Sequence record: PZ379183.1
From: a phage
Length of the DNA: 46,713 nucleotides
Reading direction: 5' to 3' (one strand)
The notes below the pieces were generated by a model. The model did not search any database and was not told the DNA's origin. It was given only the letters and a program-made list of their open reading frames with translations. Of the stretch, positions 671-46,153 are shown piece by piece; the stretch's first letter is position 1, and the number at the start of each line of letters is the position of its first letter. A program made the translations under genes and the position numbers.

Positions 671-687
671 TAGCACTTTTTGCCTAA
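671..687 (+). promoter_or_regulatory. TAGCAC-N5-GCTAA motif copy (variant TAGCACTTTTTGCCTAA)
   Basis: Motif followed by CATAAT-like element and CATCGAAACGA leader before ATG at 751. Confidence 0.5.
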
Positions 688-994: not shown

Positions 995-1180
995 ATGAAA
1001 ACTAAAATGGTACATAAGAGCGAAGTTAAGATTGGCGATACTGTTATCCATCGTGGCTATCTTAGAACTGTAAATGCCAACACTTTTAGTAAGGATGAGT
1101 TTATGGGACTACTTCTTTGGGGCGACTCCTACCGGCTTGGGCAGGAGATGGTTGAAGTCATAATTGATGTTAAGTTTTGA
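995..1180 (+). CDS. hypothetical small protein (61 aa)
   Basis: ORF with GGAG RBS; stop immediately followed by TAGCAC motif. Confidence 0.4.
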   Translation: MKTKMVHKSEVKIGDTVIHRGYLRTVNANTFSKDEFMGLLLWGDSYRLGQEMVEVIIDVKF

Positions 1181-1182
1181 AT

Positions 1183-1198
1183 AGCACGAATTGCTAAA
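1183..1198 (+). promoter_or_regulatory. TAGCAC-N5-GCTAA motif copy (TAGCACGAATTGCTAA)
   Basis: Exact consensus copy directly after stop of 995..1180, followed by TATAGT-like element. Confidence 0.5.
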
Positions 1199-1253
1199 CC
1201 TTCCGCAAGGCCATTTGATATAGTGGCCTTATTGAAGCAAAGCAAAAGAGGAT

Positions 1254-1487: not shown

Positions 1488-1717
1488 TTACAATTAACCT
1501 GTCAGAGAAAGATGCAGCAATCCTTAAATCGATCATAATGAAGCCGATGTACTCTACGCTCACCTTTGAGCAGATGCGTGTCGTAAAAGAGACTAGCGCG
1601 CAAATCAACAATCAGCAGTTCGACGTATCAGACTTCGAGTCATCTCGCCAGTACGAAGCTCTAAGCATCCAGAATGCTGGCTACCTCACTAACTGGGATA
1701 AGGCGACAAAGAAATGA
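1484..1717 (+). CDS. hypothetical protein (77 aa)
   Basis: ATGA start/stop overlap with upstream ORF (translational coupling). Confidence 0.5.
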   Translation: MITINLSEKDAAILKSIIMKPMYSTLTFEQMRVVKETSAQINNQQFDVSDFESSRQYEALSIQNAGYLTNWDKATKK

Positions 1718-1866
1718 TTTATTACGTTCACACATACTATACGGGAAAATTCAACAGCGTTAAGCATATTCGGGCTTATGAGTGTTACGAAGATGCAAAA
1801 TCTCAGCTGGACGTTCTTGGAGGGGGTGTTGAGTGTTATGTTCTTCGTGATGAAATCGGTGAATAG
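1714..1866 (+). CDS. hypothetical small protein (~50 aa)
   Basis: ATGA overlap with upstream ORF; stop TAG is the first triplet of the next TAGCAT motif. Confidence 0.35.
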   Translation: MIYYVHTYYTGKFNSVKHIRAYECYEDAKSQLDVLGGGVECYVLRDEIGE

Positions 1867-1879
1867 CATGAATTGCTAA
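1864..1879 (+). promoter_or_regulatory. TAGCAC-N5-GCTAA motif copy (TAGCATGAATTGCTAA) plus ~60-bp conserved leader
   Basis: Motif followed by CCGGAGAAATCCGG hairpin and CATAAT; near-identical 60-bp copy at 40758-40820. Confidence 0.5.
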
Positions 1880-1937
1880 ACAATTGCCGGAGAAATCCGG
1901 CATAATTACCACATCGACAACGAGATGGAGTATAGAT

Positions 1938-2922: not shown

Positions 2923-3084
2923 ATGATTAAGATCGTATTCATTGGTGAGGATGATTATATGGCTTGTTTGAAGCATGGTGACGTATTCTATGCAGAGCCT
3001 AGCGAAGATGGCAATGGGTACTTCATTAAAAACAAGCACGATGAGGAGCTTTACATAGCAAACCACGAGGCTCTTGTTTACTAA
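2923..3084 (+). CDS. hypothetical small protein (53 aa)
   Basis: GAGGTG RBS then ATG; stop overlaps next ATG. Confidence 0.35.
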   Translation: MIKIVFIGEDDYMACLKHGDVFYAEPSEDGNGYFIKNKHDEELYIANHEALVY

Positions 3085-3224
3085 TGGATAACTACGAAAC
3101 ACCAAGCCAGTGGGCTAAACGGATGATGGATGAGGCTAAGACTGGCGAGGTTGCCATGATGTACTTCGAGCTAATGAATCTATGGAAAGAGCGTGAAGAT
3201 AAAATGGATAGCACGAATTGCTAA
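3084..3224 (+). CDS. hypothetical small protein ending in -DSTNC
   Basis: Frame checked manually; last codons are encoded by the TAGCACGAATTGCTAA motif itself. Confidence 0.35.
   Translation: MDNYETPSQWAKRMMDEAKTGEVAMMYFELMNLWKEREDKMDSTNC
3209..3224 (+). promoter_or_regulatory. TAGCAC-N5-GCTAA motif copy
   Basis: Exact consensus copy, followed by CCATATAAT and CATCAAACAACGAAGAG leader before ATG 3284. Confidence 0.5.
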
Positions 3225-3283
3225 ACATGACAGGCATGGATGCCATATAATTAACCCATCAAACAACGAAGAGAGATAGAGAT

Positions 3284-4226: not shown

Positions 4227-4299
4227 GTTCTGCTGGCGTAACAGGATAACGCAAAGACCTCCTAAGTCTTAGTTACTGGTTCGAGTCCAGTGCGGAACA
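4227..4299 (+). tRNA. tRNA-Arg (anticodon CCU)
   Basis: Manual cloverleaf fold: 7-bp acceptor stem GTTCTGC/GCGGAAC (one G-U), U8, D-stem GCGT/ACGC with GG in D-loop, anticodon stem AAGAC/GTCTT, loop CUCCUAA (U33, anticodon CCU, A37), T-arm ACTGG-TTCGAGT-CCAGT, discriminator A followed by encoded CCA. Confidence 0.85.
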
Positions 4300-4333
4300 C
4301 CAAATTAAGAAACCAATAATCCTGGGGGATTAA

Positions 4334-5380: not shown

Positions 5381-6952
5381 ATGAGTGAAACATTAGTATG
5401 GGAAGAAATGACGCCAGCAGAAAAGATGGCAGTTAAGGCTATATCCACTCATAGTTTCGAGGGATTCTTGCGGGTGTGGTTCCAACTTACCCAGGGCGAG
5501 CGATACATCCCTAACTGGCATCACAAATACCTGTGTCGAATCATTGACGAGATTATCGCTGGTGAGCGCAAGGACACAATCATTAACATCGCTCCAGGAA
5601 GTGGAAAAACAGAGATAGCTTCAATTCACTTCCCGGCCTACTCGATGGTTAAGCTAAAGAAGGTCAGGAACCTGAACATCTCGTTTGCCGACTCACTTGT
5701 TAAGCGTAACTCCAAGCGAGTTCGGGACCTGATTAAGTCTGTTGAGTTCCAGGAGTTATTCCCATGCAAGTTCGGTACGTGCAAGGATGATGAGCTTCAA
5801 GTTCTGGATGAGTCTGGTAAGGTTCGGTTTGAGTCAATATCTAAGGCTGCTGGAGGCCAAATAACCGGCGCAAGGGGTGGATATATAACGGATTCATATA
5901 GCGGAGCGGTTCTGTTAGATGATTTTGACAAACCAGCCGACATGCTTTCTGCTGTTTTTCGCGCTAACAATCACGTGATGCTAAAGAATACAATACGCTC
6001 TCGTAGGGCGAGCTCCGTAAAAGGAAAGGCGACGCCGATTATCTCTATCCAACAGCGCCTTCATGTGAATGATAGTACGTGGTTCATGATGAATGGCGGT
6101 ATGGGTATTAGCTTCGACTTGATTAAGATACCGGCGCTCGTAACTGAGGATTACGTCGACACGCTTCCTGACTGGATTAAGCGGCAATTCATTGATGACG
6201 TTCTATCAAGCGAATATATTGAGCGTGATGGTGTTAGGTACTATAGCTATTTCCCTGGCAAGGAATCTGTTCACGACCTAGTTGCAATGTGGGATTCTGA
6301 TAGCTATACATTCCTTAGCCAGTATCAGCAAGAACCAGTAGCACTTGGCGGCAACCTGATTAACGTAGACTGGCTTCAACGCATTAGCGACACTCTGCGA
6401 CCGCCAGCTAAGTACGATTACAGGTTTATGGTCCTTGATACTGCGATGACAACCAAAAGTTACAGCGACTTTAGCGTCATGCAGCTATGGGGTTATAAGG
6501 ATGGGAAGATTTATCTGCTTGACCAGCGGCGCGGTAAATTTGAAGCTCCTGAGCTCGAGGCTGAGTTATTGGATTTCGAGAAGATGGCTAGGGCATCCAA
6601 TCAGATAGATGGCATCCTTCGTAAAATCATCATCGAGAAGAAAGCCTCTGGTATTGGCCTGATTCAATCAGCCGGAAGGGTTATGCGAACGCCTATCGAG
6701 CCGTACGTTCCGGATAACGATAAGCTGACTCGCGTAATGAGTGCATTGCCGCAGATTAAAGCTGGTAACGTAATCCTTCCGGAGTCTGCTACTTGGCTTA
6801 ATGGCTTGCTAACGGAGATTGCGGCATTCACGGCAGATGATTCACATGTTCACGATGACCAGATAGACTGTTTGACAATGGCCGTAAACCTGGTACTGAA
6901 CATTGCAGAAGACCCTAAATCGAGGATGATGCGCCTCGCTGGCATCAAATAG
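5381..6952 (+). CDS. terminase large subunit
   Basis: ORF track 5369..6952; start at ATG after GGAGAG; Walker A-like GSGKTE near the N-terminus and C-terminal acidic nuclease-like region; position before portal. Confidence 0.85.
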   Translation: MSETLVWEEMTPAEKMAVKAISTHSFEGFLRVWFQLTQGERYIPNWHHKYLCRIIDEIIAGERKDTIINIAPGSGKTEIASIHFPAYSMVKLKKVRNLNISFADSLVKRNSKRVRDLIKSVEFQELFPCKFGTCKDDELQVLDESGKVRFESISKAAGGQITGARGGYITDSYSGAVLLDDFDKPADMLSAVFRANNHVMLKNTIRSRRASSVKGKATPIISIQQRLHVNDSTWFMMNGGMGISFDLIKIPALVTEDYVDTLPDWIKRQFIDDVLSSEYIERDGVRYYSYFPGKESVHDLVAMWDSDSYTFLSQYQQEPVALGGNLINVDWLQRISDTLRPPAKYDYRFMVLDTAMTTKSYSDFSVMQLWGYKDGKIYLLDQRRGKFEAPELEAELLDFEKMARASNQIDGILRKIIIEKKASGIGLIQSAGRVMRTPIEPYVPDNDKLTRVMSALPQIKAGNVILPESATWLNGLLTEIAAFTADDSHVHDDQIDCLTMAVNLVLNIAEDPKSRMMRLAGIK

Positions 6953-6965
6953 CACGTTTTGCTAA
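6950..6965 (+). promoter_or_regulatory. TAGCAC-N5-GCTAA motif copy (TAGCACGTTTTGCTAA)
   Basis: The TAG is the terminase stop codon; followed by GGATGGCTTATAGT and ACGAGAGGAG leader. Confidence 0.5.
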
Positions 6966-15333: not shown

Positions 15334-15340
15334 ATATAAA

Positions 15341-15360
15341 CCCTCTTCGGAGGGTTTTTT
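15341..15360 (+). terminator. rho-independent terminator
   Basis: CCCTC-TTCG-GAGGG hairpin followed by T6. Confidence 0.8.
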
Positions 15361-15365
15361 ATTGA

Positions 15366-15382
15366 TAGCACTTTTTGTTAAA
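15366..15382 (+). promoter_or_regulatory. TAGCAC-N5-GCTAA motif copy (variant TAGCACTTTTTGTTAAAG)
   Basis: Followed by TGTATAGT and CATTCATCGAAACGAAA leader before ATG 15442. Confidence 0.5.
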
Positions 15383-26649: not shown

Positions 26650-26665
26650 TTAGCAATTGGTGCTA
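26650..26665 (-). promoter_or_regulatory. TAGCAC-N5-GCTAA motif copy (minus strand, TAGCACCAATTGCTAA)
   Basis: Encodes the C-terminal STNC and stop of the methyltransferase; followed on the minus strand by GATATC-type element and CATTGAAACGAAACACA leader. Confidence 0.5.
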
Positions 26666-27339
26666 TTTGCAATGAAGACGGCTTTTGCAAAACCGCGAGG
26701 AGTTAGGCTGCGAATTACCTTTGTCTTATTGCTCTTCCCGCCTAGCTTCTTGTATTGGTCAGAGAATCCACCGTTAACGTCCACTGGAATTGCCTCTGGC
26801 CATTTAAACCCATTGCCATACCAAATGCATGTCTTCTTGGGATATGCGTCTTTTGGCTTTATTAGGTCGCTAAAAAACGGGTGTAAATCATCTTCCGGCA
26901 AATAGCCTCCGTATTCATATGGGTGGAAGGTGTTATCAGGTTTTCGCCAAAGTGATGACAGTACGCTGATTGGGTTCTCGATCATGTATGGTACTCCGTA
27001 TTTTTCAGCAAGATTAAAAGCAATCTTGCACGTCTCCGCAGCTTCAATTTGGAAGTTAGGGTTAGCTATACACTTGCGTTCAAAGTGTCTTGATCCGCTC
27101 ACGGCTAAGTCAGTGCATGGAGGGAACGCCATTATAAAATCAGGTTTCACATCAAAATCGAAGTCAGCATCTATCCATGCGTTAACGTATGTGATGTTCT
27201 CATGCTCAACCTTTGCATTTAAGTCACTGTAGCTGCCGTGGTCAGACTCATCAAAGTTGAAACAGTAGCAAGTGTGGCCAGCTTCAGCCCAATCCTTTAC
27301 CGCCAGACCAGAACCATCAAATAAAGACCAGATAACCAT
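26650..27339 (-). CDS. DNA (cytosine-5) methyltransferase (putative, short)
   Basis: N-terminal SLFDGSG (SAM-binding motif I), FPPC (Pro-Cys catalytic motif) and IENP (ENV-like motif) in C5-MTase order. Confidence 0.55.
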   Translation of the reverse strand: MVIWSLFDGSGLAVKDWAEAGHTCYCFNFDESDHGSYSDLNAKVEHENITYVNAWIDADFDFDVKPDFIMAFPPCTDLAVSGSRHFERKCIANPNFQIEAAETCKIAFNLAEKYGVPYMIENPISVLSSLWRKPDNTFHPYEYGGYLPEDDLHPFFSDLIKPKDAYPKKTCIWYGNGFKWPEAIPVDVNGGFSDQYKKLGGKSNKTKVIRSLTPRGFAKAVFIANSTNC

Positions 27340-27397
27340 TTTAAAATTCTCTCTCGTTGTTTGTGTTGCTAACTATACCCGGTTTTGCGGATCAGTT

Positions 27398-27413
27398 TTA
27401 GCAATTAGTGCTA
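27398..27413 (-). promoter_or_regulatory. TAGCAC-N5-GCTAA motif copy (minus strand)
   Basis: TAGCACTAATTGCTAA on minus strand about 60 nt upstream of the methyltransferase start. Confidence 0.45.
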
Positions 27414-28081: not shown

Positions 28082-29053
28082 ATGACATTTAAAGTTTATA
28101 CGAACGACGAGCTAACAAATGAATCCTATCACGAAGAGCAAGACCATATCTCTGGCTCTTCACTGGCTGAGATTCTTGCTACCTCACCAGCTAAATGGAA
28201 GTTTAAGCAGCGCAATAACTCTAGCGCAGCACTTAAATTTGGCACACTAAGTCACTGCATGATGCTAGAGCGCGAGGTATTTGACTCAACATACATGCGA
28301 GCTACTGACTTTGACGAAGTGGAAGGATTGATTACTAGCCAAACGGCTTTATCCGCAGCGCTTAAAAAAGTTGGAGTTTCAGGCACGTCAGGGAAGGGAT
28401 ATAGCGAGCTCGTGGAGATGATGTATAAATCTGGTGAGGATTGGCCTGTTAAATGGTTAATTGAGCAGCAGGAGAGCGCTGAGGCGTTAATTAGTGGCAA
28501 AGAGCTCGTTACTGCGAAAGATTACGATAAGGTAATCTCAATGCGCGAGGTTCTTACTAATATCCCAGCTTACGATGCGATTATTAACTCACCAACAGCA
28601 CAGAAAGAGCTATCAATCTTTGGTGAGATTCTTGGGTGTGGTGTTAAGGTTAGGCTTGATCACGTGGATGTTGTTGATGGCGTGGTTTTCATTACTGACT
28701 ACAAGACGACGGCGGACGCAAGCCCGAGAGGATTTGGCAAGTCAGCTTATGACCATGGATACCTGTGCAAAATGAGCCTTCAGCGTGACTTGTTCGTGAA
28801 GGCATTTAACGAGAAGCGTAAGGTTGTGGTTCGACTTCTGGCGCAGGAAAAAACGGAGCCTTACTTACCAATGAGCTACACGCTTACAGATGAACAGCTT
28901 CGCATTGGTCGTTTACAATATTGTGAGGCACTAGCAACATACAAACAGTGCAAGGAGCTTGATGTATGGCCTGGGTATAGCAATGGGATTACAGAGCAAG
29001 ATTTGATGATTCCTGAGTGGGTAAGTAAGCAGTATCAAGAACTTCTAAAATAG
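28082..29053 (+). CDS. PD-(D/E)XK exonuclease (YqaJ/RecE/lambda Exo-like)
   Basis: VRLDHVDVVDGVVFITDYKT region resembles the Asp...Asp/Glu-x-Lys nuclease core; adjacent to the annealing protein gene. Confidence 0.6.
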   Translation: MTFKVYTNDELTNESYHEEQDHISGSSLAEILATSPAKWKFKQRNNSSAALKFGTLSHCMMLEREVFDSTYMRATDFDEVEGLITSQTALSAALKKVGVSGTSGKGYSELVEMMYKSGEDWPVKWLIEQQESAEALISGKELVTAKDYDKVISMREVLTNIPAYDAIINSPTAQKELSIFGEILGCGVKVRLDHVDVVDGVVFITDYKTTADASPRGFGKSAYDHGYLCKMSLQRDLFVKAFNEKRKVVVRLLAQEKTEPYLPMSYTLTDEQLRIGRLQYCEALATYKQCKELDVWPGYSNGITEQDLMIPEWVSKQYQELLK

Positions 29054-29066
29054 CACTAATTGCTAA
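29051..29066 (+). promoter_or_regulatory. TAGCAC-N5-GCTAA motif copy (TAGCACTAATTGCTAA)
   Basis: The TAG is the exonuclease stop codon; followed by GGTATGAT and ACGAAAGAGAG leader. Confidence 0.5.
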
Positions 29067-29123
29067 AGACAAAATCAAAAGGTGAGGTATGATTGCCCCA
29101 CTTAAACGAAAGAGAGATAGTTA

Positions 29124-32837: not shown

Positions 32838-32853
32838 TAGCACTAATTGCCAA
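32838..32853 (+). promoter_or_regulatory. TAGCAC-N5-GCTAA motif copy (variant TAGCACTAATTGCCAA)
   Basis: Between primase stop and tail fibre start; plus orientation although flanking genes are minus. Confidence 0.4.
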
Positions 32854-32880
32854 AATTCATTCTACCATCTTTCAGGCAAT

Positions 32881-32900
32881 AAAAAACCTCCCGAAGGAGG
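32881..32900 (-). terminator. rho-independent terminator (minus strand)
   Basis: CCTCC-CGAA-GGAGG hairpin preceded on plus strand by A6 (T-tract on minus strand), right after primase stop. Confidence 0.7.
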
Positions 32901-33824
32901 TTAGTTTAGCAAGTCGTTTGCTTTGTACACTTTCTTTCGTATGCCTGTTTTAAATGACTCACCGTCATTAGGAACTACAACATCAACACCCCTATCGTCA
33001 GCAACAGCGAGTATATCGCTATCAGAATCACGGCAAGCAATTCTGAACTTCCTTGACTTGTCGCGGTGGATAACCATCTCCATATTGTAACAGGAGAAAG
33101 CAACAAACACTTCGCGCCCACCAGTAGCAAGGTGAACACGTATGCCATCAATATAATTGTCAACAACATAAGTATAACTATCATCCAGCTTAGAACCAAT
33201 AACGGAAACAGAATCACGAGTGTAATCACCAGCAAGGAACTTAACATTTGAATCCTCATCAATAAACATTACGTTACAGAACTCATCACTAAGCCCATCT
33301 TCATAAACCATCGAACAAGGGATTGCGTGAATCATTGAACAATTTTTAGCTATACCAACATCAAAACCAAACTCGTCATAAATACCCTCGTATGTCGTGA
33401 GTGGACTAGATTCAACTCGCTGAGTCCTCTCCATGACCTCAAGAACTTTCTTGTGGTCTACTTGAGCGCAAATTTTATAACGCTGCGTTCTTGATGCTTG
33501 CTTGTTTGCTTTAACTATAACCTCAATTGGTATTAAGTTCAGCCAGTCACCAAGCAAATTTACTGAATCAGCGAAGGACAATCCAGTGCACTTCATGACC
33601 CATCCTATACCGGAGTCACTTCCGCATTTCGAACAAACTGCCGCGCCATTTCCTTTTTCACTGCCTATTTCGTCGGTAAATCTGAATCTGTCAGTGCCAA
33701 AGCAGTATGGGCATGGTCCGTGCTTCTTACTTAGGTGTCTATCATTCCAACCAAGTTCCTTTGCATAAAATGATTTCCACAATCCGGCCATCTTAGGTAT
33801 AACTTCATTCTTATCGTAATTCAT
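32901..33824 (-). CDS. DNA primase (zinc-finger primase, putative)
   Basis: N-terminal zinc ribbon C-P-Y-C...C-S-K-C followed by acidic catalytic-like region; upstream of helicase in the replication block. Confidence 0.65.
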   Translation of the reverse strand: MNYDKNEVIPKMAGLWKSFYAKELGWNDRHLSKKHGPCPYCFGTDRFRFTDEIGSEKGNGAAVCSKCGSDSGIGWVMKCTGLSFADSVNLLGDWLNLIPIEVIVKANKQASRTQRYKICAQVDHKKVLEVMERTQRVESSPLTTYEGIYDEFGFDVGIAKNCSMIHAIPCSMVYEDGLSDEFCNVMFIDEDSNVKFLAGDYTRDSVSVIGSKLDDSYTYVVDNYIDGIRVHLATGGREVFVAFSCYNMEMVIHRDKSRKFRIACRDSDSDILAVADDRGVDVVVPNDGESFKTGIRKKVYKANDLLN

Positions 33825-34300
33825 TTGCTTAACCCGTGATTTTCGTGAAAGTTGTATTTTCCCTCTGCTTCAATTCTTACTTTATACGCCCGCTCTGGAG
33901 TATCGAAGTTCCCAAGGTGTAGCTGCTTGCCGTCAACCTTGATGTGAGCCTTAAATTTTCCGTGATTTAGCTTTGCCACTCCACAATAACCAGTTGTTGA
34001 TAAAACGCTAAGCTTGCAATTTCTTGAGTTACCTTGATTTGTTGTTACTCTTAGGTTTTCTATTCTGTTATCTAATTTGTTATGGTTTATATGATCAATG
34101 TAGTCGCCATTTTGAAGTTCTCCATTAAACATCTCCCACACAACTCTATGTACATAAGTCCTAAAGCCATTAACAGACACTTTGTAATAGCCAGATGTAG
34201 ATAGTGAGTTGCACTCATCGCCAACCTTAACACGTCTTGCAGTGCTAATCTTCCAATGCAATTTGCCATCTACATAGTAAAAATAATCATGCCAGTTCAT
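33821..34300 (-). CDS. HNH homing endonuclease
   Basis: YVHRVVW...IDHINHNKLDNRIENLR signature; paralogue of 14169..14651. Confidence 0.75.
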   Translation of the reverse strand: MNWHDYFYYVDGKLHWKISTARRVKVGDECNSLSTSGYYKVSVNGFRTYVHRVVWEMFNGELQNGDYIDHINHNKLDNRIENLRVTTNQGNSRNCKLSVLSTTGYCGVAKLNHGKFKAHIKVDGKQLHLGNFDTPERAYKVRIEAEGKYNFHENHGLSK

Positions 34301-34351: not shown

Positions 34352-34825
34352 TTACTCTTTAGCTTTTCGTGCGGCTTCGTTGGCAATCTTATTCTTGCGC
34401 CACGGTCGACAAGGTGGCTTTGTTGCTAGTTCAGCCTCAGTAACCACGCGTAGCATGTGGCGCTTCTTGCATCTAAGCGTCAGAGGCTTACCGTTACCGT
34501 CAAATTGCAGGTCTGGTCGGCAGAAAGTAGCTCGGAACCCTCCCTTATTTCTCTTGTACGCATTATGTGCTCGCTGGGCGCCTCGAGCCGAAATCATACC
34601 GCGATCAAACCATTGTTCTACAGTCTGGTGAGATACATTTAACTGCTTGGCGATATTGGCCTTCGTGCCGTAGAAGTCAAGAACCATCTCCAGACGAGCT
34701 CTTAGCCCAGCCTTTACTTCATCTTTCAATACGTAGTAGCCTGACGGTCGTTTGCGCTGTTTCTTGTCTTGCGTGCGGATGGTTCCGTTATTGCCGTTGA
34801 TAGTTCGCTTGTCAATTTCACACAT
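34352..34825 (-). CDS. Cro/YdaS-like HTH DNA-binding protein (putative regulator)
   Basis: GTKANIAKQLNVSHQTVEQWF helix-turn-helix segment, basic C-terminal region; first gene of a minus-strand operon from a divergent control region. Confidence 0.4.
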   Translation of the reverse strand: MCEIDKRTINGNNGTIRTQDKKQRKRPSGYYVLKDEVKAGLRARLEMVLDFYGTKANIAKQLNVSHQTVEQWFDRGMISARGAQRAHNAYKRNKGGFRATFCRPDLQFDGNGKPLTLRCKKRHMLRVVTEAELATKPPCRPWRKNKIANEAARKAKE

Positions 34826-34848
34826 CTCATTACCTCAATAGCATTTTT

Positions 34849-34864
34849 TGTTAAACAATAGGGT
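34849..34864 (+). promoter_or_regulatory. TAGCAC-N5-GCTAA motif copy (variant TAGCATTTTTTGTTAA)
   Basis: In the divergent intergenic region between the HTH gene and the helicase gene. Confidence 0.4.
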
Positions 34865-34921: not shown

Positions 34922-36916
34922 ATGCTTCCAGTAGAGCGCTTAGTAGCCAACTTCGATCAAGAGAAGATTAAGCAGATTCAGAGAGATTACCAGTTTGGAG
35001 AAATCACTCCTTACCCATTCCAGTGTGTGACATTTGATGCAATTGGGAAGGCTATTGGAAAGTACGAGGCCCCATTCATCGCAGACCTGTCTGTATCTGC
35101 TGGTAAGACAATTATTCTTGCCATGATTGGAAAGCGCATGGAACAGCTTGGGCTTCCTTACATGGTGCTTTCTCGCCAGTCAGAAATTATCAGCCAGAAC
35201 GCTGAAGAGCTTCGTAACTTCGGCATCCGTAATAGCGTCTATTGCGCTGGCCTTAACGTTAAATCAGTTTACTACCCAACCATAGTGGCTAGTGAGGGCA
35301 CGGCTGCTAACGGCTTGTTTAAGGGCCTTGGTGACTATGTTCCTGCCGTTATTGCGATAGATGAATGTCATATGGTTGACCATATGGATATCGTAGAAGC
35401 TGAAGAGAACGAGGAAACATTCGAGCAGATGAGCACGAAGAAGGGTGAGATGGTTTTCAAGGATGGAGTGAATACCGGATTGCTCGGAACTGGTCGTGCG
35501 CAGTACACGCTAATCATTACTGAGATGAAGAGACGCTGCAAAGAGAAGTATGGTCGCGAACTACGCATCTTCGGTTTGACTGGCAGCCCGTACCGTAACA
35601 ACGACCACATTGTAGTTAGTAACCCAAATGTCCGTGGATTCTGGCGCAAAACTGTAATGCAAGTGCCAACCAGCTACCTTGTTGACTTGGGGTTCGTTGT
35701 TCCTACTGTCTACGGTGAAGTTGGTGATTTGGGCTACGACCTTAGTGAGTTCACTCCTGATGGAAGTGATGGGGTTAAGGACTTCAGCAAGAAAGAAATG
35801 GATGCGATGGCTGCAAAGATTCACGAAAACCAAACGATGACACAAAAGATAATGGGATTTGCTGCTAAGTTTATGGAAACAAGGAATGCTGCATTGGTAA
35901 CTTGCGCTGGCAAACAGCATTGCGAGGAGGCGGCAGCCGCACTTCCAGAAGGTGTTACTTGGGCGATAGTTACCAACTCCACTGGTGAGAAGAAGCGTAG
36001 AGAGATACTTGAGAAGGCAGCCAACGGAGAATATAAGTTCATATTTCAGATTGGTTGCCTCACAACTGGCGTAAACTGCCCCCCGTGGGATACAAGCATT
36101 ATCCTGAGGAAGGTTGGTAGCATTACTCTACTCATTCAGTTGCTTGGTCGTGGTATGCGTATCCTTAAGAAGAAGCACAAAGAAGCTGGAATGGTAAAAG
36201 ATGACCATGTTGTTCTTGATTTTGCTGGAACGCTTGATGATATGGCTGAACTTTACTTCGACCCAATTATAGAAGAGGTACAAGACCAGAAATTTAGGTC
36301 AGCAAGAAAGCGTGGTGATAAGCCAAGAATCTGTCCGGCATGCTCTTATGTGAACTCTCAATTAGCCAGGCGCTGCAATAACGTAATTGACTGGAAGCGC
36401 TGTGAGCACTTCTTTCAGTTTAGACTGTGTGAAGATATAGCGGACCCACAGACCAAAGCTATCATTAAGAAAGGATGCGGTGAGAAGAATGATATTGCAG
36501 CTAAGAATTGCAGATGCTGTGGTGAGATGCTCATAGACCCGAATGCTAAGTTATCAGGAAAAATGTATCGTAAGGGGGACTGGTTGCGAGTTTATGACTT
36601 CAAGATTGGGTTAACAAAGAACCAGTCAGGGATCGTTGCTTCATATGAGGTAATGGCTCATAGTGGAGATAAGTTCCGAGCTTATGAAACATTCTTCCCG
36701 GAGTCAGACCATCGTGTTTGTTCTGTCAAATGGAAGGCGTTTTGCTCAACTCACATCGAGAACAGGACTGAGGCTTTTAGGATTGGCAGATTGCGTAATG
36801 CTAAAATGATTATGACAAATGCACATCTTTTCCGTGCGCCGCTAAGGATTACGCACCGCAAGAATCAGAAGTCGCAAGATATTATCGCCAACAAATCATT
36901 TACGATGGAGGATTGA
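34922..36916 (+). CDS. ATP-dependent DNA helicase (superfamily 2, DEAD/DEAH-like)
   Basis: Walker A-like SAGKT, DECH box (AIDECHMVD), later helicase-type motifs and a C-terminal Cys-rich zinc-finger region. Confidence 0.75.
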   Translation: MLPVERLVANFDQEKIKQIQRDYQFGEITPYPFQCVTFDAIGKAIGKYEAPFIADLSVSAGKTIILAMIGKRMEQLGLPYMVLSRQSEIISQNAEELRNFGIRNSVYCAGLNVKSVYYPTIVASEGTAANGLFKGLGDYVPAVIAIDECHMVDHMDIVEAEENEETFEQMSTKKGEMVFKDGVNTGLLGTGRAQYTLIITEMKRRCKEKYGRELRIFGLTGSPYRNNDHIVVSNPNVRGFWRKTVMQVPTSYLVDLGFVVPTVYGEVGDLGYDLSEFTPDGSDGVKDFSKKEMDAMAAKIHENQTMTQKIMGFAAKFMETRNAALVTCAGKQHCEEAAAALPEGVTWAIVTNSTGEKKRREILEKAANGEYKFIFQIGCLTTGVNCPPWDTSIILRKVGSITLLIQLLGRGMRILKKKHKEAGMVKDDHVVLDFAGTLDDMAELYFDPIIEEVQDQKFRSARKRGDKPRICPACSYVNSQLARRCNNVIDWKRCEHFFQFRLCEDIADPQTKAIIKKGCGEKNDIAAKNCRCCGEMLIDPNAKLSGKMYRKGDWLRVYDFKIGLTKNQSGIVASYEVMAHSGDKFRAYETFFPESDHRVCSVKWKAFCSTHIENRTEAFRIGRLRNAKMIMTNAHLFRAPLRITHRKNQKSQDIIANKSFTMED

Positions 36917-36917
36917 T

Positions 36918-37337
36918 ATGAAAATCACAGACAAAGGTGATTACCTCGAGTTCTATGGCGGACCGGTGAAGTCATGCCCAAAGGAAGACGATGAACAAAT
37001 CTTCTGCTCTGATTGGGTGAAATACAACTATCCGCAGATTGTTTACTGGCACACGATTAACGAAAATAAAAAGAGCATTGGTCAAGCAAGAAAAGACCAA
37101 GCCAAGGGGCTTCTCAAAGGTGTGTCAGACTGCTTATTTCTGATACCTGAGTCATTGCGTGGCGGTTATCCATTTGGCGCCATAGAGTTAAAGAGGGCTG
37201 GTAAAACGCAAGCAAGCCCAGTTAGCAATGAGCAAAAGTCATTCCTAAAAAGCGTAAGGGAATCAGGCGGTTTCGCAGCGGTGGCTTATGGAAGAGAGGG
37301 TTTTCTTGCGGCATTCGCAGAGATGATAAGAAAATAG
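36918..37337 (+). CDS. VRR-NUC-type nuclease (putative)
   Basis: Small PD-(D/E)XK-like core with D...E-L-K (GAIELKRAG); translationally coupled to helicase (stop/start overlap). Confidence 0.5.
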   Translation: MKITDKGDYLEFYGGPVKSCPKEDDEQIFCSDWVKYNYPQIVYWHTINENKKSIGQARKDQAKGLLKGVSDCLFLIPESLRGGYPFGAIELKRAGKTQASPVSNEQKSFLKSVRESGGFAAVAYGREGFLAAFAEMIRK

Positions 37338-37350
37338 CACGAATTGCTAA
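37335..37350 (+). promoter_or_regulatory. TAGCAC-N5-GCTAA motif copy
   Basis: The TAG is the stop codon of 36918..37337; followed by TGTATTAT (extended -10-like) and CATCGAAACGAAACACA leader. Confidence 0.5.
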
Positions 37351-37415
37351 AGACGAATTGGTGAGTTGGTGTATTATCAACTCATCGAAACGAAACACAC
37401 AAAGAGAGAAAGAAA

Positions 37416-38203: not shown

Positions 38204-38455
38204 ATGTTGGGATTAGATTTTCAGCCTGGGCATTATGACTTAGTACATGGTAGTAGTGGGAATAAGTTTAGAGCAATCCCTATTTCTGACTGGTTTCCTC
38301 CTGACTACGTAGATGTTAATGCGAAGACTAAAGATGGCAAGTGGGTACAGATTTATTATTCACCATCATGTGGAAACCTGTGCATGACTGACCTGGACAA
38401 GAAATTAGCAATTTGTGCTACTTTGTTGGACTTTTGGTTGAAAGAGGTTGAATGA
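38204..38455 (+). CDS. hypothetical protein (83 aa)
   Basis: ORF in operon context. Confidence 0.4.
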   Translation: MLGLDFQPGHYDLVHGSSGNKFRAIPISDWFPPDYVDVNAKTKDGKWVQIYYSPSCGNLCMTDLDKKLAICATLLDFWLKEVE

Positions 38456-38536: not shown

Positions 38537-39670
38537 ATGGCAGCAGCAAAAATTACCACCGAGCAGTTGATCGAAGAACTGAAAAACGGCCTGACTAACA
38601 AGGCGATTGCAGAGAAGTACGGAATGAACATTCGAAACGTTGAGCTTCGTCGTAGCAAGTTGGCTAAGAGTGGGGTTGGGCATGGTAATGAAGGCATCAA
38701 GAAGCTAGTTCCTGATGGCTATCTTGTTAAAGGCACTTCAACAATGATTGATGCGGATGGTAATGAGAAGCTTCGCTGGGTTAAAACTTCCATCGACGAA
38801 CAGAAACAAGAAGAGATGCTTCAGCAGATTGTTCAGGCGCTTACAGATGAGCTCCCTCGAGAGACTCCGAAACCACTCAGTGAATCAAGCTATGAGGACA
38901 CCTTGAGCCTCTACCCCGTGTTTGATATGCATATTGGCGCAATGGCTCACCATGCAGAGTGTGGGGAGAACTACAGTACAGAAATTGCAGAGCGAGTGCT
39001 TAACCAATACTTTGATTATGCAGTTGCTAAGGCCCCGAATTCATCAAAAGCCGTATTACTGATTGGTGGAGACTTCCTTCACTCGGATGGAATGGAAGCT
39101 GTAACTCCAACCAGCAAGCACGTACTTGATCAAGATAGCCGTTATCATAAACTTGTCTACGTAGCTGTTCGTGCAACTCGCCGCGCCGTCAGTAAGATGC
39201 TTGACAAGCATAAAGAGGTTGAGGTTCAGATTATACCAGGCAACCACGACCTTTCTGGGATGATTTGGCTTCGAGCTGCAATGGCTGCCTTCTACATGGA
39301 TGAGCCTCGTGTAAATGTTGATGCCTCACCAGCCGCTCTTCACGTGACGGAGTTTGGTAAAACATTGTTGGGTTACTGCCATGGTCATGAATTGCGAAAG
39401 CCTGACACTCGTCTTTCAACTCTTGCGCGCGACCATCGCAAAGCATTTGGTAATGCTGAATACGTTTATACACATAGTGGCCATTATCATCATCAGACGG
39501 TTACTGAGGGTAATCTTGGAATTGATGAGTCACACGGTCAGTTGGGTGCTAAAGATGCGTACAGCGCAAACGGAGGGTATCGCTCTTATCGTCAGGCCTC
39601 AGTAATTATCTATAGCTCAGAGTACGGTGAAGTTGGTCGATTCACTTGCCGACCTGAAATGTTTAAGTAA
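38537..39670 (+). CDS. calcineurin-like metallophosphoesterase with N-terminal HTH-like domain
   Basis: Ordered motifs D-M-H, GGDFLHSD, GNHD, C-H-G-H, T-H-S-G-H-Y-H-H matching the metallophosphatase signature; N-terminal ~110 aa contain a sigma-region-4-like HTH. Confidence 0.65.
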   Translation: MAAAKITTEQLIEELKNGLTNKAIAEKYGMNIRNVELRRSKLAKSGVGHGNEGIKKLVPDGYLVKGTSTMIDADGNEKLRWVKTSIDEQKQEEMLQQIVQALTDELPRETPKPLSESSYEDTLSLYPVFDMHIGAMAHHAECGENYSTEIAERVLNQYFDYAVAKAPNSSKAVLLIGGDFLHSDGMEAVTPTSKHVLDQDSRYHKLVYVAVRATRRAVSKMLDKHKEVEVQIIPGNHDLSGMIWLRAAMAAFYMDEPRVNVDASPAALHVTEFGKTLLGYCHGHELRKPDTRLSTLARDHRKAFGNAEYVYTHSGHYHHQTVTEGNLGIDESHGQLGAKDAYSANGGYRSYRQASVIIYSSEYGEVGRFTCRPEMFK

Positions 39671-39686
39671 TAGCATTTTTTGTTAA
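39671..39686 (+). promoter_or_regulatory. TAGCAC-N5-GCTAA motif copy (variant TAGCATTTTTTGTTAA) plus hairpin
   Basis: Directly after the phosphoesterase stop; followed by GCCTCAAAGGATTGAGGC hairpin. Confidence 0.4.
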
Positions 39687-39743
39687 TAAAGCCTCAAAGG
39701 ATTGAGGCAAAATGAATAAACGATAACGAGATGAGGAGTTGTA

Positions 39744-40217
39744 ATGATTTACGTGTTTGATATTGATGGAACTATTGCTAACAATGAACATAGAAGCCAC
39801 CTCTTACCATCTAGTGACCTTCACTTGACTTCAAGTTGGAGTGATTACAATAGAGCCTGTTCTGGAGATTCACCGATAATTCCAATGATAAACATGATGA
39901 ATGCGTTAGCTGAGTTATCGCCAGTTTACATCATGACTTCAAGAAGTGACGAAGTCGAATGTATGACGCTTGAATGGCTTCAGTATAATAATATTAATTA
40001 TGATGGAATATATATGAGGAGTAGATTGGATAACAGAAATGACTATATCATTAAAGAGATGTGGCTAAATGATTTGTGTAATGGTGACAAAGCAAGTGTG
40101 ATAATCTTTGAGGATAATCCTAATGTTATCAGTCACCTAAGGAATTGCGGATATACTGTAATGTCAGTTTGTGAATATAAAGAATTACCAAAAGACTGCG
40201 AATCTCACGGAGAATAA
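39744..40217 (+). CDS. HAD-family phosphatase (polynucleotide 3'-phosphatase / nucleotidase-like)
   Basis: N-terminal FDIDGTI motif (DxDGT, nucleophile Asp of HAD phosphatases); AT-rich coding sequence. Confidence 0.55.
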   Translation: MIYVFDIDGTIANNEHRSHLLPSSDLHLTSSWSDYNRACSGDSPIIPMINMMNALAELSPVYIMTSRSDEVECMTLEWLQYNNINYDGIYMRSRLDNRNDYIIKEMWLNDLCNGDKASVIIFEDNPNVISHLRNCGYTVMSVCEYKELPKDCESHGE

Positions 40218-40218
40218 A

Positions 40219-40773
40219 ATGAAAAAGTTAATCATCCTTAATGCACCCCCTGGTGCTGGAAAAGATACAGTTGCAGATATCATTGTTAATCTTGGAATTT
40301 GCAAGGATAAGGTTTCATTCAAGTCACCAATGTTTAATGTTGCAAAAGGAATACTATCAAGCGATGAGTTTGATGAATTTATTAAGAATTACGATGACCG
40401 AGAGTACAAAGAATCACCACATGAATTTCTTGGTGGAATGACGGTTCGTGAATTTATGATTTGGATTAGTGAGTCAGTTATGAAGCCAGTCTTTGGTGAT
40501 GATGTTTTCGGTAAAAGGCTAGCGCAATCACTTGGTGATGGTTGCTATATCTGTGCTGATGGTGGCTTCGCTAGCGAGATTAATACTCTCATTGATTCAG
40601 GGGTTGAAGTTACTTTGATTAGACTTTTTAGGCCTGGCTATACTTTTGATGGAGATAGCCGCTCCTACATTCGCGGTGTCTGCGCAAGAGAAATTGACGT
40701 TCATGTTGTAGATGGTGATATTGATGGAACCTCTGCTTTGGTAATGCACGTAATAAATAGCACGAATTGCTAA
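40219..40773 (+). CDS. P-loop kinase (polynucleotide kinase or dNMP kinase-like)
   Basis: Walker A LNAPPGAGKDT at N-terminus; ATG 2 nt after the HAD stop with GGAG RBS; ends in -INSTNC encoded by motif. Confidence 0.55.
   Translation: MKKLIILNAPPGAGKDTVADIIVNLGICKDKVSFKSPMFNVAKGILSSDEFDEFIKNYDDREYKESPHEFLGGMTVREFMIWISESVMKPVFGDDVFGKRLAQSLGDGCYICADGGFASEINTLIDSGVEVTLIRLFRPGYTFDGDSRSYIRGVCAREIDVHVVDGDIDGTSALVMHVINSTNC
40758..40773 (+). promoter_or_regulatory. TAGCAC-N5-GCTAA motif copy plus ~60-bp conserved leader
   Basis: Exact consensus; following 60 nt nearly identical to 1864-1925, including CCGGAGTAATCCGG hairpin and CATAAT. Confidence 0.5.
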
Positions 40774-40831
40774 ACAATCGCCGGAGTAATCCGGCATAAT
40801 TACTACATCGAAAACAACAGAGGATTCAAAA

Positions 40832-41833: not shown

Positions 41834-42216
41834 AGGCTGCGTTAATTGCTGCGGTAATTATACTTTCTGGTTGCTCGGCAACATCTGCGCTGACCGGGTT
41901 GATTGGTAGTAGGCCAGAGATTAGCGCTCAAGCAGGTGCGGAGAATAACAAGGTTGGAGTGGGGATAACTAATAAGGTTGATTCAAGTTCCAGCGCAAAG
42001 GCTGAAGTGAAGAACTCTAAGGTTGACACTCTTGATAGTTCAAGCGGTAAAAAGACTTCTGATAACTCAATCAAGGCATCAACAATCACGGCTGAGAAGA
42101 TTGAAATCACCAACAATGATTCGTCTGCAATCCCGTGGATTGGGAGTGGAATCATGTTTTGCGTCATCATCATTCTGCTCTTAATGATATTCAGGAAAAA
42201 CAAAAAAGCCCCGTAA
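41830..42216 (+). CDS. unimolecular spanin (u-spanin, T1 gp11-like)
   Basis: N-terminal lipoprotein signal with lipobox LSGC and a C-terminal transmembrane segment (IPWIGSGIMFCVIIILLLMIF); immediately after endolysin. Confidence 0.65.
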   Translation: MKAALIAAVIILSGCSATSALTGLIGSRPEISAQAGAENNKVGVGITNKVDSSSSAKAEVKNSKVDTLDSSSGKKTSDNSIKASTITAEKIEITNNDSSAIPWIGSGIMFCVIIILLLMIFRKNKKAP

Positions 42217-44165: not shown

Positions 44166-44210
44166 TGTTTCTGAGCGGCCATTATATCAATAGCCGCTTA
44201 TAATGCATTA

Positions 44211-44223
44211 TCAATTAGTGCTA
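44211..44223 (-). promoter_or_regulatory. TAGCAC-N5 motif copy (minus strand, variant TAGCACTAATTGA)
   Basis: Followed on minus strand by TTGATATAAT (TG-extended -10-like) upstream of the ATPase gene; also encodes the C-terminal STN-stop of the upstream small ORF. Confidence 0.45.
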
Positions 44224-44381
44224 TTTAGTAAGATGCAATCTATCTTGTAGTAGTCAAAGTGATTTTCTGAAGATATTTCTTTGTTATATTTAAACTCCTG
44301 TGCTTTGAATTCTTCATCGAAAGCGGCAATCACTTCGCTTCCATCATAGTGTGTGCAACCACTTACAATGTATAATTTCAT
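44211..44381 (-). CDS. hypothetical small protein (56 aa) ending in -NSTN
   Basis: Manual translation; ATGA overlap with upstream gene. Confidence 0.35.
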   Translation of the reverse strand: MKLYIVSGCTHYDGSEVIAAFDEEFKAQEFKYNKEISSENHFDYYKIDCILLNSTN

Positions 44382-44928: not shown

Positions 44929-44987
44929 GATCTCTTGCTCTCTTTCGTTTCGATGGAGTAAATATACGCCATCCGTGGCGGTGAGTT

Positions 44988-45003
44988 TTAGCAATTAGTG
45001 CTA
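44988..45003 (-). promoter_or_regulatory. TAGCAC-N5-GCTAA motif copy (minus strand)
   Basis: Followed on minus strand by GTATATTT and CCATCGAAACGAAAGAGAG leader. Confidence 0.5.
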
Positions 45004-45152
45004 TTTTTTCTGGCCTTCTCAATTGCCTTCAACATAATCTCGTGAGACTCAAGCAGGTCCTCGTTAAACCAGTCCCCGCAAGGCCAACCCTTTCCGCTGT
45101 AAGCACTAATTATTTCCAGATCGAAATAGTTTATATCAGATGGTAAAAGCAT
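44988..45152 (-). CDS. hypothetical small protein (54 aa) ending in -NSTNC
   Basis: Manual translation on minus strand; C-terminal residues encoded by the motif. Confidence 0.35.
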   Translation of the reverse strand: MLLPSDINYFDLEIISAYSGKGWPCGDWFNEDLLESHEIMLKAIEKARKNSTNC

Positions 45153-45896: not shown

Positions 45897-46137
45897 CACT
45901 GTCATCTCTCTATGTTTTCTTGTTATCGAAATCTCTTCAACGTACTCACTACAACTCGGGATTTTAAACCCGGCCCGGCATCCTATCAAAAGGACCCGCA
46001 AGGCGCTTTGGTGGGTAAGGTAACGCTTCCTCACATTGCGCGGTGTCGTTCACTCTTTTTGGTTCCTTTCGGAAGTGACTCAGAGTCCAGCACCGTTTCG
46101 ATGAATACATAGTAGCAACTTACTAATGATTGTGCAT

Positions 46138-46153
46138 TAGCAAAAAGTGCTAT
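46138..46153 (-). promoter_or_regulatory. TAGCAC-N5-GCTAA motif copy (minus strand, variant TAGCACTTTTTGCTAA)
   Basis: Followed on minus strand by CATCGAAACGG leader toward the right-end operon. Confidence 0.45.

Follow-up and report, generated by a model that had tools for sequence, protein, structure and literature searches.

Why do five unrelated proteins encoded by one phage finish in the same few residues? The question is raised by a small gene at 3084..3224 in the phage sequence PZ379183.1, whose full 46,713 nucleotides (nt) were analysed and are called the window below. The last 16 nt of this gene (3209..3224) are one copy of a short repeated motif, and the protein ends in residues that the motif encodes. 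The first-pass annotation had proposed that a constraint at the DNA level imposes a common C-terminal peptide, NSTNC, on unrelated proteins, and that this tail could act as a tag. Here, the gene ends, their orthologues, the motif and its surroundings were compared. The NSTNC ending is best explained, with a probability of about 0.8, as the translation, in one of three frames, of a promoter element and not as a protein signal; the element would be a consensus class II marbox, a binding site of the host regulators MarA, SoxS and Rob.

Gene ends at the motif and in orthologues

Translation agreed with all nine gene ends listed in the first-pass annotation. Five open reading frames (ORFs) finish in motif-encoded residues, -STNC in four and -STN in one, and four others stop on the TAG of the motif (Table 1). 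The five tailed ORFs are conserved genes, each belonging to a PHROG family. The profile match ended 4-21 residues short of the C-terminus in four of the five, and that of the methyltransferase reached residue 227 of 229. The same stops were called by GenBank annotators in close relatives (AN_ECEAS, 32848..33402 and 42061..42201; SU57, 39506..40060). The motif hits TAG in frame 0 and reads xxT AGC ACN AAT TGC TAA in frame +2, and the third frame reads through (A-x-I/K-A-K). The tail codons, AAT AGC ACN AAT TGC TAA, consist wholly of motif sequence; in the 56-aa gene, the motif variant TTGATAA puts a TGA one codon earlier. Third-frame reading was found in a Cro/CI-like helix-turn-helix (HTH) gene, where a motif copy falls within the last eight codons, so all three frames of the element serve as coding sequence. 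This copy heads the promoter module of the HNH endonuclease gene 33821..34300(-), and in relatives without the HNH gene the same box precedes the primase. The motif-TAG stop of the terminase large subunit gene is also present in AN_ECEAS and SU57 and is not found in CY1, phiA2-1 or T1. In T1, the 'transcriptional regulator' ST23 (locus L001, 35979..36431(-)) ends -NSIFS on a degenerate motif copy, AATAGCATTTTTAGTTAA, indicating that motif-encoded tails occur in the type phage too.

The first-pass annotation had proposed checking whether the tail is retained in orthologues where the motif is absent. It is not: no orthologue without a recognisable motif keeps the tail, and conservation of the peptide independent of the DNA motif was not found. 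For the 46-aa gene at 3084..3224, 13 of 13 orthologues without a recognisable motif are tail-less, ending ..REREDKK, ..SRGL and similar, and AN_ECEAS carries a decayed motif copy and ends -NSTNS. The deoxynucleoside monophosphate (dNMP) kinase has the tail in AN_ECEAS, SU57, L028 and L125; tailed orthologues come from some Braunvirinae and one distant phage. Its orthologue in CY1, where TTGC of the motif has changed to TCGC, ends -NSTNR; those in L049, L121 and L112 stop on TAG, and those in L061, L016 and L116 have neither motif nor tail. About a dozen methyltransferase orthologues end ..ANSK or ..ANQK on the motif TAG. The exceptions are a tailed one in the close relative L123, one ending -NSTFC in L077, and three without motif and without tail (L124, L083 and L046). 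The methyltransferase of the window differs from the TAG-stop orthologues by 7 nt, shifting the frame. Among orthologues of the 54-aa gene at 44988..45152(-), all three states occur, namely tail, TAG stop and no motif. Within families, the tail alternates with a TAG stop or with the gene's own stop, and its residues follow mutations of the motif (STNR, STFC, STNS).

The comparison set comprised 120 motif-carrying loci from viral contigs and the whole genomes of T1, AN_ECEAS, phiA2-1, CY1, SU57 and Sushi (loci L001-L144). Genes upstream of 451 unique motif copies were clustered into 120 families, and the majority end-state was scored for each family. The motif TAG was the majority state in 61 families, the tail ending on the motif TAA in 14, an own stop at -3 in 14, an own stop at -4 in 14, and a stop further upstream in 17. 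Tails were contained in 20 families, of which only 4 with more than one member were tail-only. Compared with random frames, the tail frame was depleted (14/103 framed families, 1/3 expected, p = 4e-6) and the TAG frame was enriched (75/103, p = 3e-16). The codon before TAG was usually the motif-imposed AAA (Lys), so that the motif dictates a C-terminal Lys as well. In the window alone, 5 tails among 12 motif copies abutting a co-oriented upstream gene equal the random-frame expectation (p = 0.37). The non-random thing in the window is the motif, not the tail. The NSTNC ending looks like a by-product, tolerated, sporadic and bound to motif and frame, because it is missing in motif-less orthologues, is exchanged for a TAG stop, tracks motif mutations and lies in a depleted frame.

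These results bear directly on the idea of a selected functional tag (for degradation, localisation or interaction) on a set of early proteins. The part of the earlier proposal that stood is that the DNA motif writes the same residues onto unrelated proteins. Selection for a tag found no such support, and we regard it as the least probable of the readings considered here, although the tail is common to five unrelated proteins of one genome and is kept by the dNMP kinase and the 54-aa gene across several Braunvirinae. It was kept exactly where the motif was kept in the same frame. Within the tail codons, only one motif base varies freely, the N of ACN, and changes at this third position are synonymous; the tail thus has no signal of its own at the protein level. 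As a short common C-terminal peptide on unrelated proteins, the tail is like the ssrA/tmRNA tag and other C-degrons. The ssrA tag comes from trans-translation and has the hydrophobic LAA at its end. NSTNC, in contrast, is polar, encoded in the genome, set by a DNA motif and lacks conservation among orthologues, and we know of no C-degron that resembles it, ssrA ..LAA included. Annotation and proteomics should take note of the tail: four or five residues of several T1-like proteins are dictated by the motif, as is the C-terminal Lys of many more.

The element as a marbox in a putative promoter module

The motif TAGCACNAATTGCTAA is present in 9 exact copies in the 46.7-kb window, where shuffles expect 0, and in 15 copies at up to 2 mismatches (0.22 expected). 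Degenerate patterns found five more copies beyond the strict pattern of the first-pass annotation, at 671(+), 15366(+), 34839(+), 39671(+) and 34374(-). The window belongs to a T1-like siphovirus (Drexlerviridae, subfamily Braunvirinae), and the phages ES and AN_ECEAS, of the same subfamily, share about 91% identity with its right-hand 20.7 kb. A 21-nt direct repeat of such phages was described in TLS in 2024, where 18 copies (DR1-DR18, consensus aaATAGCACnnnTTGnTAAAA) lie in intergenic regions about 76 nt upstream of start codons, and it also occurs in T1, Rtp and Rogue1 (PMC11447400). The window motif has the consensus of this repeat, is multicopy and co-oriented with transcription in a Drexlerviridae genome, and shares with the TLS repeat its sequence, its orientation to transcription and its distance of about 76 nt to the start codon (PMC11447400). 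The T1 genome has 17 copies. The element was found in T1 (Tunavirinae), TLS (Tempevirinae), Braunvirinae and the Klebsiella phage Sushi (Webervirus), which has about 15 modules. The TLS authors weigh stoperators, enhancers and UP elements and list the function as an open question; their paper calls the repeats intergenic and makes no mention of stop codons or C-terminal residues supplied by them or of a marbox match (PMC11447400). The repeat itself has therefore already been described. Its reading as a marbox appears to be new; literature searches, within the library used, found no paper linking the T1-like repeat to the marbox or Rob.

The site of MarA, SoxS and Rob has been given as 5'-GCAHWWWWTGYYAAA-3' (PMC6900184), and the consensus marbox from chromatin immunoprecipitation sequencing (ChIP-seq) as 5'-gcactaattgctaaa-3' (PMC5684230). 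The latter was matched at 15 of 15 positions by three window sites, 27397..27411(-), 29053..29067(+) and 44987..45001(-). Most other copies matched at 14 of 15, differing at one weakly constrained base. A position weight matrix (PWM) was built solely from 33 E. coli MarA ChIP-seq sites. The phage copies were its top-ranking sites in the window (13.6-19.1 bits), compared with 18.7 for the best host site (leave-one-out) and a host median of 10.8. Sites of at least 12 bits numbered 24 in the window and 2.5 in shuffles, and the degenerate patterns GCAHWWWWTGYYAAA and AYnGCACnnWnnRYYAAAY were enriched 10- to 17-fold. The host yneO site, which has the identical 15-mer, bound MarA at 0.3 uM in a published MarA ChIP-seq site table.

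Variation among the copies was also compared with the marbox, using a scan of 246 unique modules in which only GCA, AA and the TAnnnT -10 hexamer were fixed. The modules vary at several positions where the marbox is degenerate: the W at +8 was A/T in 244/246, the Y at +12 was C/T in 227/246 and the Y at 0 was T/C in 240/246. Positions +6 and +7 also varied, and GCAC, TTG and TAAA were near-invariant. Judged by its sequence, including the asymmetry of the site, the T1-like repeat element is a consensus marbox.

The element, about 20 bp long (aAATAGCAC-nnn-TTG(C/T)TAAAa), heads a putative promoter module. Aligned flanks and a profile of 441 unique copies gave the order aAATAGCACgaaTTGCTAAAAc – 18 bp – (G at -14) TATAaT – ..cc.CA – tcgAAAc.AAa – ribosome-binding site – ATG, about 75 nt in all. 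The TAnnnT -10 hexamer lies 18 (17-19) bp past the element, with a short hairpin between, and begins at +37 from the T of TAG in 271/441 unique copies and at +36 or +38 in most others. A conserved CA at +48/+49 is the expected transcription start. The window has about 17 such modules, and every module copy points to a ribosome-binding site and an ATG at about +58 to +84 on the same strand. Except for those at 6950 and 15366, the modules precede non-structural or small genes. In SU57, BPROM sigma-70 promoters had been annotated independently at these modules. Unrelated downstream genes share a conserved start region and leader, CATCGAAACGAAA(gagag) at about +48 to +62 from the T of TAG, and the leader matched no Rfam family.

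In about 84% of 113 non-redundant modules, the stretch from the marbox to the predicted start contains a short, GC-rich hairpin whose stems differ in sequence and remain complementary. Its mean z-score was -2.2 against dinucleotide shuffles, and 54% of modules fell below -2, compared with 3% of random window segments. Free folding gave two classes: in 48 modules the hairpin stops immediately short of the -10 hexamer, and in 47 its arms lie on either side of that hexamer. A single box-to-start hairpin in a fixed register was tried and rejected, as pairing in register i+j=73 was 4.0 of 8 versus 3.2-3.5 in shifted registers. The spacer hairpin precedes the start of its own module, which limits its possible action to read-through RNA or DNA.

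In class II promoters, a forward marbox overlaps the -35 and is centred between -36 and -55 (PMC6900184, PMC12052159). The structural archetype is micF, with the box centred at -41.5 and GCAC as the A-site, and the cryo-electron microscopy papers on Rob and SoxS agree with this register. In micF of E. coli K-12, the G of GCAC is 35 bp from the first T of the -10 hexamer TAGAAT. The phage modules have the same 35 bp, from the G of GCAC at +2 to the hexamer at +37. All of the approximately 17 module copies face their downstream gene, and the element overlaps the -35 with about 18 bp to the -10, the -10 and start being predicted. The phage modules are therefore like the class II marbox promoters of E. 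coli in consensus (AYnGCACnnWnnRYYAAAYn), forward orientation, -35 overlap and the distance from GCAC to the -10. They are unlike host marbox promoters in that a virulent phage carries them, with about 15-20 near-consensus copies in each genome, most host sites being degenerate. They also add an invariant TA before GCAC, the spacer hairpin and the conserved leader, with binding and activation predicted from sequence. The element matters more than the tail; its recognition as a consensus marbox in class II register makes the function of the repeat directly testable.

Genes lie tightly against the modules, and the element carries stops in two frames. An upstream gene in the TAG frame ends there, usually after the Lys codon of the flanking AAA; one in the TAA frame acquires S-T-N-C; and one in the third frame uses its own stop just upstream or reads through (..ARKAK..). 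All of this is directly observed. In the proposed explanation, Rob (constitutive) and/or MarA/SoxS would bind the class II box, replacing the -35 contact, and the bound factor would activate sigma-70 RNA polymerase at about 17 promoters of non-structural genes.

Alternative readings and the acting factor

Several observations weigh against the translated marbox and its use by host factors. Directly before GCAC, where the marbox consensus has 'n', 98-99% of copies have A and TAG is nearly invariant, which is tighter than the consensus requires, and marbox position 19 (Y) is usually A in the phage copies. The conserved spacer hairpin is not a feature of host marbox promoters, and the -10 hexamer and the start site are predictions. 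Unstressed laboratory strains, in which levels of MarA and SoxS are low and much Rob is reportedly inactive, support good growth of T1-like phages; dependence on MarA/SoxS/Rob may be incomplete, or the basal activity of the promoters may be good. Genes ending on TAG are also in strong excess, which indicates some selection or bias in how genes meet the motif. It is possible that stops within the box are protected by promoter selection, that third-frame genes need an unprotected stop of their own and that the tail residues are slightly harmful. Finally, the TAGCA and TGCTA halves are partly palindromic in the window phage, and a dimeric phage HTH protein would fit.

This last point speaks for a reading in which the element is the operator of a phage regulator, for example the Cro/CI-like HTH protein, serving as a stoperator or an activator site, with a coincidental or convergent likeness to the marbox. 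The HTH gene is conserved in the window, T1, SU57 and Sushi, and stoperator and enhancer ideas were raised by the TLS authors. We nevertheless consider such an operator unlikely. About 28% of copies have T at +12, which breaks the palindrome TAGCA-N5-TGCTA and fits the Y of the marbox; the flanks are asymmetric and use is strictly one-directional. A symmetric dimer operator was judged less likely on these grounds. In addition, the three 15/15 sites are identical to a consensus derived from host ChIP-seq alone, the register equals that of micF, and the HTH matches were below Pfam thresholds. Stoperators are repressor sites of a temperate phage and are not tied to a -10 hexamer. The phage copies are like the stoperators of mycobacteriophage L5 (cited by the TLS paper) in being many short asymmetric sites in one orientation in tight gaps at gene ends. 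They are unlike them in that each functional-looking copy lies at activator distance from a -10 and in that the phage is virulent, with no repressor identified. A promoter enhancer read by RNA polymerase without any factor, either UP-like (alpha C-terminal domain) or an unusual -35, would account for the A-rich 3' part of the element (TAAAA, about -36 to -32). An UP-like element was suggested by the TLS authors, and a good -10 with G at -14 could function without a -35. This reading is improbable: TTGCTA was tried as a sigma-70 -35 and rejected, its 22-bp distance to the -10 being more than sigma-70 region 4 can span, and no -35-like hexamer lies at 16-18 bp. UP elements are A/T tracts, which leaves the invariant GCAC at about -47 to -44, the A-site contacted by Rob/MarA, unaccounted for. 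Still harder to credit is action as RNA, in which a small UAGCA-loop-UGCUA hairpin plus the GC hairpin after it would signal termination or processing of the upstream transcript. A C-to-U change at +12 still pairs (G.U), the T1 record annotates hairpins after the motif as rho-independent terminators, and a true terminator can directly follow the motif in relatives. The motif hairpin is weak, at -3.7 kcal/mol and -1.3 for the TTGTTA form, compensatory double changes were not seen, and the unpaired positions (C5, T9, AAA) are as conserved as the paired ones. The fixed distance to the -10 hexamer would also be unaccounted for.

If the element is a marbox, the protein acting on it is probably a host one. 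No AraC/MarA-like protein was found with Pfam among 10 candidate window ORFs, and no MarA-like protein was found in 1.25 Mb of T1-like DNA by tblastn and a hidden Markov model with query sequences entered by hand. The HTH regulators of the window and T1 share only 54% identity, and the element is invariant across subfamilies, which favours a conserved host factor. T4 middle promoters have a good -10 and an activator box in place of the -35 (MotA box, AsiA sigma appropriation); the MotA box has its centre near -30, and the phage itself encodes MotA, the protein that reads it. The box described here, unlike theirs, is centred near -41 and matches a host activator site, and a phage homologue was not found. 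Of the three host factors, Rob is produced constitutively and in abundance, and stress induces MarA and SoxS. We think it fairly probable, judging from these comparisons, that host Rob and/or MarA/SoxS are really used at these elements. We lean slightly towards the wider view that T1-like phages (Drexlerviridae including the Klebsiella Webervirus) wire most of their non-structural promoters, about 15-20 per genome, to host MarA/SoxS/Rob(/RamA) through near-perfect class II marboxes, with the boxes doubling as protected stops of upstream genes and the NSTNC tails as a side effect.

If this wider view is true, a whole family of virulent enterobacterial phages, some of them used in Klebsiella and E. 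coli therapy, would depend on host regulators of stress and antibiotic resistance. Phage gene expression and performance would then be tied to bile, salicylate, oxidative and antibiotic stress and to mar-type multidrug-resistance mutations (marR, soxR, ramR). The elements would also be compact, strong and inducible promoter parts.

Features of the window

The genes, motif copies and module parts of the window are collected in Table 1. Two copies stand without a module, 32838..32853(+) and 38405..38420(-), and may be decaying copies or bare binding sites.

Table 1. Genes ending at the motif, further motif copies and examples of module parts in the window. Scores in bits refer to the motif copy.
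Feature	Coordinates	Strand	Motif copy and details
46-aa gene, PHROG 1312, ends -DSTNC	3084..3224	(+)	motif/marbox copy 3209..3224 supplies S-T-N-C and TAA; MarA PWM 18.3 bits
Module after 3209..3224		(+)	hairpin GGCATGGATGCC 3233..3244; -10 TATAAT 3246..3251; predicted start A 3258; ATG 3284
dNMP kinase, PHROG 139, ends -INSTNC	40219..40773	(+)	motif 40758..40773
DNA methyltransferase, PHROG 757, ends -ANSTNC	26650..27339	(-)	motif 26650..26665
54-aa gene, PHROG 4548, ends -KNSTNC	44988..45152	(-)	motif 44988..45003 (GCACTAATTGCTAAA, the published consensus marbox)
56-aa gene, PHROG 3002, DUF7336, ends -NSTN	44211..44381	(-)	motif variant 44208..44223
50-aa gene, stop on motif TAG	1714..1866	(+)	motif 1864..1879
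Terminase large subunit, stop on motif TAG	5381..6952	(+)	motif 6950..6965
Exonuclease VIII-like gene, stop on motif TAG	28082..29053	(+)	motif 29051..29066 (GCACTAATTGCTAAA, consensus marbox)
VRR-NUC gene, stop on motif TAG	36918..37337	(+)	motif 37335..37350
61-aa gene, third frame, own TGA one base before motif	995..1180	(+)	motif 1182..1197
377-aa gene, own TAA directly before motif TAG (double stop)	38537..39670	(+)	motif 39671..39686
Cro/CI-like HTH gene (T1 ST23 homologue), ends ..AARKAKE	34352..34825	(-)	third-frame read-through of marbox ~34359..34374(-), GCACGAAAAGCTAAA, 16.4 bits
Motif copy, consensus marbox	27398..27413	(-)	heads methyltransferase module; -10 TATAGT at +36
Motif copy TAGCACTTTTTGCCTA, missed by first-pass annotation	671..686	(+)	full module; ATG 751
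Motif copy, missed by first-pass annotation	15366..15381	(+)	after intrinsic terminator of major tail gene; -10 TATAGT at +37
Motif copy, missed by first-pass annotation	34839..34854	(+)	upstream of helicase 34922..36916
Motif copy with module	46137..46152	(-)	19-bp spacing
Motif copy without -10 or leader	32838..32853	(+)	18.1 bits; between tail-fibre and primase genes; adjoins terminator
Motif copy without module	38405..38420	(-)	14.8 bits; antisense within ORF 38204..38455
Start/leader, examples	3257..3271; 37383..37397; 44941..44955(-)		
Spacer hairpins, examples	3233..3244; 1888..1903; 40782..40797		
Hairpins flanking -10	1208..1227; 44176..44197(-)		

Terminators were seen beside the motif in two arrangements. 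At 15334..15365(+), the canonical intrinsic terminator AAACCCTCTTCGGAGGGTTTTTT ends the major tail gene directly before the marbox copy at 15366, so that over 15334..15381 terminator and promoter module stand apart and are not interleaved. At the 3' end of the orthologue of the 54-aa gene in four relatives, L122 (AN_ECEAS), L143 (CY1), L144 (SU57) and L142 (phiA2-1), the motif is followed directly by the intrinsic terminator AGCCCTTCGGGGCTTTT, and there is no promoter module. The replacement of the module by a terminator after the motif suggests that the box could be a recombination joint between gene cassettes.

An Rfam search of the window returned a single tRNA and nothing else. A tRNA-Arg (anticodon CCU) is located at 4227..4302(+) among small early genes, and SU57 has one at the equivalent place.

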